In this document: one piece after another, positions 5,592 through 36,142 of the stretch
How positions within the stretch are numbered: the first letter of the stretch is position 1
Layout of the letters: each line of letters opens with the position of its first letter
NCBI RefSeq assembly: GCF_038871235.1
Contig: NZ_JAVZIN010000008.1
Coordinates: 1 to 64,000, forward strand
From: Candidatus Hadarchaeum sp.
Lineage (GTDB): Archaea > Hadarchaeota > Hadarchaeia > Hadarchaeales > Hadarchaeaceae
DNA length: 64,000 bases
Reading direction: 5' to 3'
The notes under the pieces: model-generated
Told to the model about the DNA's origin: nothing
What the model saw: only the letters and a program-made list of their open reading frames with translations
Databases searched by the model: none
Program-made: the position numbers and the translations under genes

Positions 5592-6629
5592 ATGGTGGAA
5601 AATCAAAGCGATAATATGTCGAAGAGAATAACCCTTTCGCACGGCGCTGGCGGAAAAATTATGATGGATTTCATAAAAAACATCATTTTGAAGGAAATTA
5701 ACCTCAAAAGCGCCGGAGAGGTGGGGCTTGACGCTCTTGACGACGGAGCCAGTATTTCCCTAGGTGACAAGACCCTGATATTCACTACCGACTCGCACAC
5801 GGTAAAACCACTATTTTTTCCCGGAGGGGATATCGGAAAGCTGTCTGTATCGGGAACAATAAACGACTTGGCAATGATGGGGGGGAGGCCGCTCGCCATG
5901 GCCTGTGCAATAGTGGTGGAAGAAGGATTTTCCATCGCCGATCTGGAACGAATATTTCGCTCAATGAACATCACTTCCCAAGAAGTTGGTTGTCCCCTAA
6001 TCACAGGTGATTTTAAAGTTATGGAAAAGGGATCGCTAGATGGGATGATTATAACTACCACAGGTGTAGGTCTAGCTGATAAAATCATCACCGATCGGGG
6101 GTTGAAACCGGGAGATAAAATCATTGTTACGGGAACCATCGGTGACCATGGGATGACAATAATTGCTCAGAGAGAAGGGATAAATCTAGCCACGGATTTG
6201 GTCTCCGACGTTGCACCCCTGTGGGAAACTATTGAGGCCGCTCTGAAGGTGGGTGGAGTAACCGCAATGAAAGATCCCACGCGAGGGGGCCTAAACGGAG
6301 CTTTGAATGAGATGGCGGAAAAGGCAAGAGTGGGCATAATCATCAAGGAAAATGAAATCCCAATTTTAGATTCTGTCAGGGCTGCTAGCGAAATGCTGGG
6401 TATTGATCCTCTCCAAATCACCAATGAAGGAAAGGCTGTTATATCTGTGGAACCGGCAAAGTGCGACTTAGTGCTGGAAGCAATTAAAAAAACCAAATAT
6501 GGTAAAAATGCTAAAATAATAGGTGAAGTGATAGCAGATTACCCTGGAGATGTGATTCTTGAAACCAGCGTTGGAGGTAGAAGACTATTAGAAACCCCAA
6601 TCGGGGACCCAGCTCCAAGAATATGTTAA
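5592..6629 (+). CDS. hypE: Hydrogenase maturation carbamoyl dehydratase HypE
   Basis: HGAGG, TTDSHTVKPLFFPGGDIG, DPTRGG, C-terminal PRIC. Confidence 0.96.
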   Translation: MVENQSDNMSKRITLSHGAGGKIMMDFIKNIILKEINLKSAGEVGLDALDDGASISLGDKTLIFTTDSHTVKPLFFPGGDIGKLSVSGTINDLAMMGGRPLAMACAIVVEEGFSIADLERIFRSMNITSQEVGCPLITGDFKVMEKGSLDGMIITTTGVGLADKIITDRGLKPGDKIIVTGTIGDHGMTIIAQREGINLATDLVSDVAPLWETIEAALKVGGVTAMKDPTRGGLNGALNEMAEKARVGIIIKENEIPILDSVRAASEMLGIDPLQITNEGKAVISVEPAKCDLVLEAIKKTKYGKNAKIIGEVIADYPGDVILETSVGGRRLLETPIGDPAPRIC

Positions 6630-6641
6630 TATACATTAATT

Positions 6642-6921
6642 GACAAATAATGACAAAAATAGAAAATTAAATATTCAGAAAAATATGTACATAAGTGGGC
6701 AATAGACAAATATAGACATATAAAAACGTGAGACTTCGGGCAACTGCTCACTGTCATTAAAAAATTATTAATGGGGGCTTTTTGGCCTTTCCAAATGCTT
6801 TTAAATAAATTTATAAAGGATGAACATTGGAATCATGATCCAATAAAAATCTAAAAATAGACAAAACTGGACAGATGTAATTAAATTTATATATTTAGAC
6901 ATAGATTGACAAATGTGGACA
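6642..6921 (+). repeat. AT-rich intergenic region with 10-bp-periodic direct GACA repeats (four clusters)
   Basis: GACA at 6642/6652, 6705/6715, 6860/6870 and 6898/6908/6918; exactly 10 bp apart within each cluster. Confidence 0.8.
6886..6893 (+). promoter_or_regulatory. TATA box of the HTH-ATPase operon
   Basis: TTTATATA about 30 bp upstream of ATG 6923; no SD seen, so probably a leaderless transcript. Confidence 0.6.
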
Positions 6922-6922
6922 T

Positions 6923-7516
6923 ATGGAAAAAATGTATACGCTGAAAGAGGCAAGAGAAATCCTTAGGGTGTGTACTAAAACCATCCAAAGGTGGGATAAA
7001 CAGGGAAAAATAAAGTGTATTCGCACTCCAGGAAATCGTCGACTCATACCAGAAAGCGAGATTTTAAGAATAATTGGAAAAATTACTCCTTTAAGTGAAG
7101 AAAAAGAAGAAATTAAAACTATAAAAGTCAAAATTGGGCCAAAAAAAGAAACATCACCTCTTGAACCTGAAACGCAAGCTGAAAAGGAAAAAATTGAAAA
7201 ACCCGCGAAAACCGAAAAGATCCAGCAGTCGGCACCACCAGAGCCAAAAATACCTGAACAGCCGCCCAAGCCCAAAGAAATGACACGATACGCGATACTC
7301 GACGCTCTTGAACCATCCGGGCTGGCTATCCGCTCTGCATTTGGCGACCTTTTATCCGCAGCCATTCTTCTAAAAAAATTTACTATCAAGGACCTATCTG
7401 CAAAGGCCCGTTGTCCTGAAACCGTAGCAAACATGTTTTGCCAGCGCATGAATTCGCTCGGCTATATAACTGAAAAAGATGGGGTTTTTGAAATGCAGAT
7501 TGAGGTTATTAAATGA
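6923..7516 (+). CDS. MerR-like (Xis/BldC/IS607-type) HTH protein with Pro/Glu/Lys linker and putative C-terminal winged helix
   Basis: N-term [43 protein letters not shown]; low-complexity linker; C-term [30 protein letters not shown] resembles a wHTH. Confidence 0.75.
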
Positions 7517-8382
7517 CAACTTTTGATGAAAAAATCGGGAGAGATCAACGTTTTGAAGCCTTTATTCAGCGCTGGGGGCTAAAAAAAGACCCTTTTAGTT
7601 TTGAAATACCATCAATTGACTCTTTTGCGCCAACACAGCAAGAAGACATCAGAAAAATTAAACAATTACTCTTAGAAGGTAAAGTTGGGGTGCTCACAGG
7701 CGACTTGGGAATGGGTAAAACCACTCTTTGCGAATTCATTGTTTCGGCTTTAAGAGAAGAAAGCCTGTCAATAACGGATCCCTCCAAACAAACCATACCT
7801 GTCCTCGTCCATGGTGCGGCCTACAAATCGTCGGGAGAAATTATCCGGGCGATACTGCTCGCGCTGGAAATGCCTGTGGATAAAGACGACGCTAGTCTTT
7901 TTGACGTTTTAAGAAGATGGCACCACGATCACCAAGAGCGCCTGATCATCATAATTGACGATATCCCGGAAAGCGGCGCAAATGTGCTTGAAATAGGTGA
8001 GTTTCTGCGCGTTCTTTCAGATATCCAAAACATATCCATCTTGATCAACGGAGAAAAAAATCAGATGCAGCGATTTTTGGAGAAGGTTCCATCGCTCAGG
8101 GATAGAGTCCAACTATACGTAGAGCTTAAACCAATGAACAAAGAAACTATAAAAGACCTCCTAAAACTGCGGTTAAGGGCCGCCGGATGCTTGAATTACG
8201 ACGCTTTGATAACTCCTAACGGATTTGACGCGATTTACAAGCTGAGCAATGGCAATCCACGGTTGGCGCTTAAGGTCGCCGACAAAGCGCTACACCTGGC
8301 CGCAGCTTTAGATGTTCCAATAAATGAAAGAGTGGTGAAAAAGGCAAACAAGGTTTCCTTCTGGAGGCGTCTGTTCGGATAG
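7513..8382 (+). CDS. ExeA/GspA-like AAA+ ATPase with C-terminal amphipathic tail
   Basis: WGLKKDPFS, Walker [10 protein letters not shown], Walker B IIIIDD, SLRDRV, GNPR; ends [10 protein letters not shown]; start overlaps the upstream stop. Confidence 0.8.
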
Positions 8383-8415: not shown

Positions 8416-8438
8416 TTGTTTCCTAAAATAGGAAACAA
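8416..8438. promoter_or_regulatory. Perfect palindromic operator TTGTTTCCTA-N3-TAGGAAACAA
   Basis: 10-bp perfect inverted repeat directly after TATTTATT and before ATG 8443. Confidence 0.7.
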
Positions 8439-8442
8439 GGAG

Positions 8443-8853
8443 ATGACATCATTGGAAGCCGAAAAAACGCCAAGGGCAACAGACTGGCTTCGTGATAACC
8501 TCCTAGTAAAAGTTCTATTGGAGCGATCACATTTAGACGAAAAAACCTTGAAAGCAATGCTGCTCTACTATTGGTCTGAGAACCCAACTTTCGAAATTAT
8601 TGCCAAAAAACTCAAAATAAAAAGATCTGGGGCCTGGAAAAGGTGGAAAAAGGGCCAAGAAGCCATAATGCGCTCATTTTACACGATTGAACTGGCGATC
8701 TACTCAGGAATTCTGGAAAGGGAAACCGCAGAAATCCTGATTGATGACCTAATTGACTACAATGAACTGGCCAAAGGAGCCGCAAATGTTGAAGAAATCA
8801 GGGATAGGATTGAACGCCGGATGGTTCAACTGGTTAGGAATCTGCGTAGCTAA
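8443..8853 (+). CDS. Uncharacterised archaeal HTH DNA-binding protein
   Basis: TFEIIAKKLKIKRSGAWKRW HTH-like segment; ATG 8443 with GGAG preferred over TTG 8416. Confidence 0.65.
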   Translation: MTSLEAEKTPRATDWLRDNLLVKVLLERSHLDEKTLKAMLLYYWSENPTFEIIAKKLKIKRSGAWKRWKKGQEAIMRSFYTIELAIYSGILERETAEILIDDLIDYNELAKGAANVEEIRDRIERRMVQLVRNLRS

Positions 8854-36057: not shown

Positions 36058-36142
36058 GCGGGGGTAGCCAAGCCAGGTTGAAGGCGCTGGCTTCAGGAGC
36101 CAGTCCCGTAGGGGTTCGGGGGTTCAAATCCCCTCCCCCGCA
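36058..36142 (+). tRNA. tRNA-Leu(CAG)
   Basis: Acceptor GCGGGGG/CCCCCGC+A; anticodon arm CTGGC-TTCAGGA-GCCAG; long variable arm; GGTTCAAATCC T-loop. Confidence 0.96.

Follow-up and report, generated by a model that had tools for sequence, protein, structure and literature searches.

The first 64,000 nucleotides of contig NZ_JAVZIN010000008.1 from Candidatus Hadarchaeum sp. (assembly GCF_038871235.1), referred to here as the window, contain a 293-bp intergenic region (6630–6922, G+C content 27%) that separates a HypE-like gene of the AIR-synthase family from an operon of three genes, which encode a helix-turn-helix (HTH) protein of the HTH_17/MerR kind, an AAA_22 P-loop ATPase, and a protein designated p145 (Table 1). 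This region carries an array of the word GACA, nine copies of which start on the forward strand at positions 6642, 6652, 6705, 6715, 6860, 6870, 6898, 6908, and 6918, and the sole opposite-strand copy within 6600–6960 is a TGTC at 6752. A preliminary description of the locus had listed these GACA starts together with the in-phase words TACA (6632) and GAAA (6662), the TATA at 6886, and the ATG at 6923, and all of these coordinates are correct. The phased GACA array is far from what chance would produce, has no second instance in the genome, and is kept among relatives, and it is well supported as a cis element, which is read here as the probable operator of the HTH gene that follows it.

The phasing of the array, which the preliminary description had put at exactly 10 bp, stands up to comparison with randomized sequence. 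Dinucleotide-preserving shuffles of 6630–6922 (n = 20,000) contain a mean of 1.48 GACA copies, never reach the nine that are observed, and hold at most two exact 10-bp pairs against the five in the natural sequence, so that none of the shuffles matches the region. Similarly, when nine sites are placed at random in the region, five or more pairs arise in 0 of 200,000 trials. No other 4-mer in 6630–6922 has more than one 10-bp pair, and five of the six GACA pairs on the forward strand of the whole window are located there. A scan of the entire assembly (1.2 Mb in 16 contigs) for other phased clusters finds 17 pairs on both strands, including the five at this locus, with no second cluster and no enrichment of the 10-bp GACA spacing elsewhere. 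Phased GACA triples with at most one mismatch have four matches genome-wide, three of which are at this locus; the outside triple (contig C6, position 98370) lies in G+C-rich sequence and is taken as chance. No wider regulon emerges from either the exact pairs or the near-exact triples of this genome. As the source of the phasing, simple tandem duplication was rejected because Tandem Repeats Finder detects just ATAGACAAAT in 2.1 copies at 6702–6722, outside of which the units have only their 4-bp cores in common. A scan of the region for bacterial-type promoters returns TTGACA-like matches, which were disregarded because the host is archaeal and the matches are the GACA units themselves.

The proximal part of the array surrounds the TATA box of the operon, as the preliminary description had also noted and as the sequence confirms, with a pair of units just 5' of the box and a triple between the box and the ATG. 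The upstream pair is separated from the TATA box by 12 bp, and the triple runs from 4 bp past the box to 1 bp before the start codon, so that its three units fill the 29-bp gap between the two. Each unit is 10 bp long, with a consensus of roughly (T/A)(A/G)GACA(A/T)A(T/A). Transcription in archaea is expected to start approximately 25 nt 3' of the TATA box, which presumably places the start for this promoter at roughly 6914–6917. In an alignment of seven same-genus upstream regions, GACA occurs at exactly −63, −53, −25, −15, and −5 from the ATG in five genomes, and the position of the TATA box is conserved in all seven (TTATATA, TTAAATA, or TTATAAG). The invariant core positions amount to 8/8 in the pair and 10/12 in the triple (18/20 for the proximal cores together), compared with 36/303 for the remaining reference positions. 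The cores are therefore under selection, since they are invariant among genomes in which the spacers drift. A second TATA-like word, TTTATAAA at 6810–6817, lies about 75 bp 5' of the main TATA box and is retained in some, not all, of the same-genus genomes; it could act as an alternative promoter. Folding of 6850–6925 as single-stranded DNA gives no structure signal (z +0.39).

Table 1. Features of the GACA array and its flanking genes, in window coordinates (offsets are counted from the ATG of the HTH gene).
Feature	Position	Strand	Description
Upstream gene	5592–6629		AIR-synthase family (HypE-like)
Distal array A	6632–6665	+	TACA 6632, GACA 6642, GACA 6652, GAAA 6662, in 10-bp steps
Distal array B	6688–6718	+	TACA 6688, GGCA 6698, GACA 6705, GACA 6715
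Block AAACGTGAGACTTCGG	6724–6739	+	Directly 3' of distal array B
Proximal upstream pair	6860–6873	+	GACA 6860 and 6870 (−63/−53)
TATA box TTTATATA	6886–6893	+	Archaeal promoter
Proximal triple	6898–6921	+	GACA 6898, 6908, and 6918 (−25/−15/−5)
HTH protein	6923–7516	+	HTH_17/MerR, 197 aa; first gene of the operon
N-terminal domain	6923–7078	+	Winged helix, residues 1–52, BldC/IS607-TnpA type
Linker	7079–7273	+	K/E/P-rich, disordered; pLDDT <50 for residues 57–103
C-terminal domain	7274–7516	+	Winged helix, residues 118–197, and stop codon
ATPase	7513–8382	+	AAA_22 P-loop ATPase, 289 aa; PF13401, 43.3 bits
p145	8416–8853	+	145 aa; third gene of the operon

The HTH protein is predicted to consist of two winged-helix domains joined by the disordered linker, and an AlphaFold model built on 26 orthologues has a pLDDT of about 90 in the N-terminal and about 93 in the C-terminal domain. 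The database copy of the protein is 194 residues long and starts at the second ATG (6932), but the first ATG (6923) is favoured by a conserved MEK(L/M)YTL sequence, with leucine at position 4 in relatives. Residues 4–51 match Pfam HTH_17 (PF12728) above threshold (44.5 bits; cut-off, 27), and the scores for MerR (PF00376; 29.3 bits; cut-off, 28.2) and MerR_1 (28.7 bits; cut-off, 21.6) also pass, with a further match to TIGR01764 that is below the cut-off. The recognition helix reads C-T-K-T-I-Q-R-W. The C-terminal domain is a generic winged helix, for which a fold search returns TFE-alpha (Z 10.1), Fur (Z 9.7), and MarR and IclR (Z about 8). The N-terminal domain, in comparison, is consistently matched to BldC: its best sequence matches in the PDB are the BldC entries 6AMA and 6AMK (E 8e-5), the top seven Foldseek matches are all BldC (TM 0.83–0.89, rmsd 1.0–1.6 Å, identity 36–38%), VIA gives Z 7.7 over residues 2–53, and the best NCBIfam family of the HTH protein is HTH_BldC (NF033787, E 3.1e-9). 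The domain has the winged-helix fold of the MerR type (alpha1-alpha2-beta-beta-alpha3), and it is followed by the disordered linker instead of a coiled coil or an effector domain.

Winged helices of the excisionase/HTH_17 kind include lambda Xis, which forms a head-to-tail micro-filament on the direct repeats X1-X1.5-X2 and is an architectural recombination directionality factor, no promoter operator protein. The HTH_17-type winged helix is what the Hadarchaeum protein has in common with Xis, as indicated by the matches to Pfam HTH_17 and, below the cut-off, to TIGR01764. According to the report on BldC (PMC5859096), that protein is structurally similar to Xis, and the entries 6AMA and 6AMK are complexes of BldC with DNA. 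In the same report, BldC forms head-to-tail multimers on direct repeats of 9 bp, the number of which varies; its recognition helix occupies the major groove and contacts bases through Lys26 and Arg30, of which Arg30 reads the G of a TG step, and its wing lies in an A/T-rich minor groove (PMC5859096). Of the BldC residues with roles assigned there (PMC5859096), the interface residues E16, R22, and G44 align with E9, R15, and G37 of the Hadarchaeum protein, and the base-contacting K26 and R30 align with K19 and R23. In addition, the optimised BldC site, given there as CAATTCGGACAATTCGGACA (PMC5859096), includes GGACAATT, and by our mapping Arg30 reads the C:G pair of that GACA; the archaeal unit therefore resembles a BldC unit that is 10 bp long instead of 9 bp. 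The two systems thus share the winged-helix fold with detectable sequence homology of the DNA-binding domain and same-strand direct repeats about one helical turn apart that have a G/C core followed by an A/T-rich stretch. They differ in that BldC is, by the same source, a bacterial single-domain protein of 68 residues with 9-bp units and a large regulon, whereas the Hadarchaeum protein is archaeal, has two domains and 197 residues, faces 10-bp units at a TATA-box promoter, apparently targets a single locus in each genome, and is partnered by AAA_22.

Variation among orthologues ties the repeat word to the recognition helix. A set of 34 distinct loci, each examined over 150 bp upstream, comprises 12 GACA-class loci, 21 GTTA-class loci, and one further locus, L016. 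All 12 loci with a K-T-[IL]-Q-R-W helix have two to five GACA, at most two GTTA, and no 10-bp GTTA pair, and all 21 loci with an H-[PQ]-N-T-[IL]-R helix have two to nine GTTA and zero or one GACA; in these GTTA-class orthologues, the position of BldC Lys26 is occupied by asparagine and that of Arg30 by arginine, leucine, or lysine. The GACA copies are spaced by 10 bp (23 cases) or 20 bp (seven cases), with no other spacing up to 27 bp, and the GTTA copies by 10, 20, and 30 bp (34, 27, and 11 cases, respectively), which makes 10 bp the modal spacing in both classes. At least one exact 10-bp pair is found in 10/12 GACA-class and 13/21 GTTA-class loci, and the number of sites is reached by no more than 1% of shuffles in 24/33 loci, as is the number of pairs in 18/33. 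In five GTTA-class genomes, all eight exact phased GTTA triples are at this promoter, compared with none for a reversed-pattern control, and two of the five genomes have no exact triple. The phasing that the preliminary description had pointed out in the window is hence kept upstream of orthologues as 10-bp arrays of either GACA or GTTA, depending on the helix class, and the array co-varies with the BldC/IS607-type domain encoded next to it.

Individual orthologous loci show further variants of the arrangement. L016 (genome G018, 1345–1500) encodes the helix C-S-V-R-T-L-Q-R-R and has two GGACA 9 bp apart just 3' of a TATA-like box, and on this sequence it may represent a third specificity class. 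L055 (1–82) has eight GTTA in perfect 10-bp phase, organized as a 20-bp unit repeated four times, and this array may be longer because it runs to the start of the contig. L018 (genome G017, contig C8, 11167–11250) has five phased GTTA 5' of the TATA box and two 3' of it in the orientation of the gene, and further 5', adjoining the stop codon of the HypE-like gene, another three or four copies are phased on the opposite strand, so that the array is divergent. The GTTA-class proteins also occur in a long form (234–264 aa), in which an HNH endonuclease domain separates the BldC-like domain from the C-terminal winged helix; PF01844 scores above threshold in L013 (1027–1815) and L011 (150–920) and is lacking in the shortest protein, that of L018. 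The window protein is a short form, with the disordered linker where the long form carries HNH.

The distribution of the two classes does not follow the phylogeny of the operon. On a tree of the AAA_22 ATPases, the class label needs five changes, at least three of which are forced by well-supported branches, and a single genus contains two GACA-class and 11 GTTA-class genomes. The independent contrasts all point in the same direction (3/3, or five when unsupported branches are counted). The C-terminal domain of the GACA-class protein L046 is 83% identical to that of its GTTA-class genus-mate L038 and 59% identical to that of the window protein (L001), whereas its N-terminal domain is 57% identical to that of L038 and 74% identical to that of the window protein. 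Similarly, p145 is 87–90% identical within the genus across classes and 62% identical to the window copy. Among the N-terminal domain, the C-terminal domain, the ATPase, and p145, the N-terminal domain alone tracks the repeat word. At the DNA level, the homology between L046 and L038 (82–84%) breaks at −73/−133 and resumes at +279/+546, and the homology between GACA-class loci of different families starts at −73/−70; the exchanged cassette therefore consists of the operator, the TATA box, the DNA-binding domain, and the linker, to which the GTTA form adds the HNH nuclease domain. Judged from these comparisons of sequence, operator and DNA-binding domain are swapped as one cassette, and the C-terminal domain, AAA_22, and p145 follow the lineage.

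A second group of relatives of the N-terminal domain is found in the transposases of the IS607 family. A search of 5.8 billion proteins yields 33 full-length homologues, the named ones of which are from Hadarchaeaceae, and 24 IS607-family serine transposases (PF00239) that match the N-terminal domain only, with 45–75% identity over 25–49% of the query. One of these transposases, P0041, has the identical helix C-T-K-T-I-Q-R-W. The DNA encoding the domain is 66–79% identical between Hadarchaeal GACA-class genes and the 5' ends of P0041-like tnpA genes. The HTH protein of the window itself scores 30 bits with the IS607 family model NF033518, for which the cut-off is 110, and has no serine-recombinase domain (PF00239, Resolvase) at E ≤0.01. 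In the report on IS1535 (PMC6188088), the transposase TnpA binds four 9-bp helically phased direct repeats near the left end of the element, its wing is modelled over an A/T minor groove, it spreads as a cooperative nucleoprotein filament, and such phased motifs are described at IS607-family left ends (IS1535, ISC1926). Corresponding repeats are present in a comparison set of 13 metagenome loci with P0041-like transposases. For example, L060 and L061, which have the same sequence and the identical helix, carry GTGGACATAAGCGGACATA, a 10-bp GACA pair that ends 6 bp before the ATG, and elements with a T-T-[KR]-T-I-Q-R-W helix carry ATAGACTTAA twice. Within 80 bp upstream of the transposase genes there are four exact GAC[AT] pairs in 1,040 bp, compared with five in 88,514 bp elsewhere (both strands), and several of the remaining loci have frameshifted genes and a single copy of the motif. 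The pair of L060 also matches the upstream pair of the Hadarchaeal loci L014 and L040 over 19 bp at 89%. One word-based search for an IS607 relative of the GTTA-class domain found none, all 20 matches being HTH-HNH orthologues.

These similarities suggest an IS607 left end, together with the N-terminus of the transposase, as the source of the GACA cassette. The IS607 TnpA proteins resemble the Hadarchaeum protein in having phased direct repeats adjoining their own gene and in filament binding (PMC6188088), and differ from it in their serine-recombinase domain, the place of which is taken here by a C-terminal winged helix. In addition, IS607 elements are mobile and have the repeats at the transposon end, whereas the Hadarchaeum locus is fixed and vertically inherited and its repeats flank a promoter. 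The Hadarchaeum protein would work in the manner of BldC and of the complex between IS607 TnpA and the transposon end, but in a strict sense it belongs to neither family, since it is below the BldC cut-off, has two domains, and is without a recombinase domain.

The interpretation that best accommodates these observations, and that is considered likely by analogy with BldC, is that each GACA word forms the core of a 10-bp operator unit and that the N-terminal domain of the protein encoded downstream binds these units head-to-tail, which would bring about negative autoregulation. The N-terminal winged helix would bind the array with one protomer per helical turn and place its recognition helix in the major groove over GACA, with K19 and R23 in the roles of BldC Lys26 and Arg30, and R23 would read the C:G pair of the CA/TG step as Arg30 does in BldC. 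The occupied array would compete with TBP/TFB and RNA polymerase and switch the HTH-AAA_22-p145 operon off. The array should repress the operon because its units flank the TATA box and cover the expected transcription start and the ATG, and autorepression is a reasonable inference from this placement; the operator is thus probably repressive. The preliminary description had proposed one-per-turn, head-to-tail sites for the downstream HTH protein, a proposal that gains strong, if indirect, support from the BldC/IS607 type of the domain, from the invariant cores with drifting spacers, and from the helix-linked switch between GACA and GTTA. Binding by this particular protein, the base contacts, and the sign of regulation are what we infer from these lines of evidence.

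Several observations weigh against this interpretation. The HTH_BldC score of 36.5 bits is below the NCBI cut-off of 77, and the units of BldC measure 9 bp, not 10 bp (PMC5859096). Among the orthologous loci, no exact 10-bp pair is found within 150 bp upstream in 2/12 of the GACA class and 8/21 of the GTTA class, and the number of sites is not individually unusual in 9/33 (reached by more than 1% of shuffles). The IS607 comparison is likewise partial, with an exact GAC[AT] pair in just four of the 13 loci. Statistical weight is further limited by the phylogeny, which provides only three to five independent contrasts, too few for the sign test to be other than weak (p = 0.25). The operator lies next to the domain and is exchanged together with it, and linkage alone would therefore keep both together, so that their association may in part be hitch-hiking; selection is shown separately, however, because the cores are invariant within a class. 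Lastly, archaeal repressors typically bind at or 3' of the TATA box, and activators bind 5' of the B recognition element (BRE). The sites 5' of the BRE and TATA box are therefore in a position typical of activators, and an activating or dual role of the upstream pair is possible.

The operon itself is strongly conserved. The AAA_22 gene comes second, after the HTH gene, in 20/20 loci, p145 is third in 19/20 (the flank of the remaining locus, L003, ends before the p145 position), and the HypE-like gene lies 5' in 12/20; the PRIC at the C-terminal end of the HypE-like product in the window is taken here to be the HypE signature. The AAA_22 ATPase is present in 56 of 66 genomes of the phylum, and its start codon overlaps the stop codon of the HTH gene (ATGA). 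In L013 (1815–2683, genome G022), AAA_22 is found as two pieces that lie in different frames and overlap at residues 132–136, so that either the gene is frameshifted or the assembly is wrong there. For p145, there is no match in Pfam or NCBIfam; Sigma70_r4 is annotated on 14% of the members of its own Atlas cluster, and clusters of TFX/LuxR-like proteins are weaker leads, so that p145 possibly is an HTH protein resembling sigma-70 region 4. The gene for p145 is followed by an Alba gene. A reading of the operon as a defence system was set aside, the PADLOC matches (mad1 at E 6e-10, with the HTH protein only, and weak P-loop matches to mad8, Avs2, and LmuB) being taken as generic domains.

In one alternative, the arrays would serve chiefly as a platform for loading or in a centromere-like role, on which the filament recruits AAA_22, and perhaps p145, through the C-terminal domain to this single site of the chromosome for segregation, remodelling, or processing of DNA, with autoregulation as a by-product. 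In ParR/parC, phased direct repeats flank the promoter of an operon that encodes the binding protein and an NTPase, and the repeats are both operator and centromere. This alternative is unlikely, although it is compatible with the DNA-binding part of the operator interpretation and accounts for several features, including the single array locus per genome, the strict conservation and translational coupling of the three-gene unit, the long and variable arrays (eight phased units in L055, five plus two in L018), and the HNH nuclease domain of the long form. A predicted complex of the C-terminal domain (residues 112–197) with AAA_22 adds weak support, with a score of 0.58 (0.58, 0.53, and 0.60 in separate runs) against 0.01 for the best control, at least 71% of contacts shared between runs, and a partner pLDDT of at least 86. 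The mark applied to such predictions is reached by 116/157 solved complexes and 2/215 mismatched pairs, but scores of 0.60 or less comprise 18/157 solved complexes and both of the passing mismatches, and the prediction tool itself rates the band that includes 0.58 as more often wrong than right unless the pairing is likely beforehand. Regulation alone explains the close placement of the sites around the TATA box and the ATG. Moreover, ParR is a ribbon-helix-helix protein with an actin-like NTPase, whereas the binding protein here is a MerR-like winged helix and the NTPase an AAA_22 protein, a class that is not known to act in segregation as ParA, ParM, and TubZ do; the families to which the downstream NTPase has matches are confined to AAA_22, KAP, TniB, and the like, with none of the ParA, ParM, or TubZ type, and its best family matches are generic and below cut-off.

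The operator interpretation also has to be weighed against binding of the repeats by another protein, such as the C-terminal winged helix, p145, or an unlinked factor, in which case the N-terminal domain would have other targets. The C-terminal domain, as a generic winged helix, and p145, with its sigma-region-4-like lead, are plausible DNA binders. Nevertheless, this explanation is very improbable and is contradicted by the domain-wise co-variation, which singles out the N-terminal domain: the word switches between GACA and GTTA within one genus in which the C-terminal domain (83%), p145 (87–90%), and AAA_22 remain typical of the lineage, and it follows the N-terminal domain only. Furthermore, the same kind of domain binds such repeats in BldC and in IS607 TnpA (PMC5859096; PMC6188088).

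A third possibility is that the repeats have no host role and stem from an IS607-family transposon, either as an inert relic or as an end that is still active. It draws on the 45–75% identity of the DNA-binding domain to IS607 TnpA domains, on the 19-bp match of the L060 pair, and on the phased motifs of IS607 left ends (PMC6188088). This possibility has as small a chance as binding by another protein, since the window protein is without a serine-recombinase domain, the locus occupies the same chromosomal place across the phylum (3' of the HypE-like gene in 12/20 and 5' of AAA_22 in 20/20 loci), and invariant cores with diverging spacers indicate selection. A replication origin, with the repeats as iterons served by the downstream AAA+ protein, was rejected as extremely unlikely: the A/T-rich intergenic region adjoins an AAA+ gene that has a faint orc1/cdc6 match (TIGR02928, 17.4 bits, E 0.0015), but this match falls far short of the 181 bits set as cut-off, the two canonical orc1/cdc6 genes (Cdc6_C, 116.9 and 72 bits) are on contig C4 with none on C8, the window profile has no clear skew turn at 6.6–6.9 kb, and phased 4-bp cores positioned over a TATA box and ATG are, to our knowledge, unlike archaeal ORB elements.

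The relationship to IS607 also permits a broader reading of the operon, in which a domesticated cis-trans module of an IS607 element, consisting of left-end repeats and winged helix, tags a three-gene machine. The filament would tether AAA_22, and in the long form HNH, through the C-terminal domain at one site per chromosome, in the manner of a loader or centromere, and the tag would have been exchanged several times, re-addressing the machine from GTTA to GACA; as a whole, this reading is doubtful. Head-to-tail filaments of MerR-like winged helices on direct repeats are described in the respective reports for bacterial BldC-like proteins (PMC5859096) and for IS607 transposases (PMC6188088). 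Full-text literature searches listed no archaeal BldC-like operator, no account of this Hadarchaeota operon, and no domesticated IS607 DNA-binding module. By analogy, a TATA-box promoter of an archaeal phylum that is still uncultured appears here to be governed by the same kind of binding. The natural swap of specificity, GACA with a K..QR helix and GTTA with an N..R(R/L/K) helix, provides a testable recognition code for the fold, and operator and reader domain are exchangeable together as a single cassette, with the remainder of the protein and of the operon left in place. The tie to IS607 suggests a route by which transposon ends may seed host regulatory circuits, and the conserved Hadarchaeota operon (winged helix, AAA_22, sigma-region-4-like protein, with or without HNH) merits biochemical study.

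The distal clusters of the array can be related to the proximal ones. Distal array A begins 3 bp past the stop codon of the HypE-like gene and aligns with a "pair + AGAAAA" element that other genera have 5' of the TATA box. Distal array B consists of two 10-bp registers offset by 7 bp, the first of which (TACA 6688 and GGCA 6698) is absent from the preliminary description; the GGCA reads GACA in relatives, and array B aligns with the proximal triple. The segment 6636–6735 as a whole is colinear with the proximal modules of the window and of four other genomes, in the common order of a pair, (AAGT)AGAAAA, a TATA-like stretch, and GACAAAT(A/G)T(A/G)GACATAT. The TATA-like stretch has decayed to TTAAATATTCAG in the distal copy, which ends in ATAA where the proximal copy has ATGG. 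The distal clusters thus look like a decayed tandem duplicate of the whole pair-TATA-triple module, a correspondence absent from the preliminary description and a reading that is kept tentative because short A/T-rich alignments can be forced. The looping or centromere-like role that the preliminary description had suggested for these clusters is conceivable. The distal pairs have conserved cores in five same-genus genomes and are shifted but present in two more; since the GACA cores are kept in the genus, the distal module is probably still bound, and its clusters probably serve as auxiliary sites.

The block AAACGTGAGACTTCGG next to array B is largely conserved in five of the seven aligned genomes and unique in the genome when up to three mismatches are allowed, and a run of five T (6779–6783) lies about 45 bp beyond it. 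An RNA gene in the intergenic region was considered and dropped: the RNA fold of 6722–6792 is without significant structure (z −1.63), an Rfam scan of 6000–7600 by E-value gives a chance-level C/D-box match alone (17.2 bits against 90, E 0.39), and neither a check of open reading frames (ORFs) nor the seven-genome alignment reveals a conserved small ORF in the intergenic region. The sole Rfam match at gathering score in the 64-kb window is a tRNA at 36058–36142, which spans 85 nt and is thus longer than the 71-position model.

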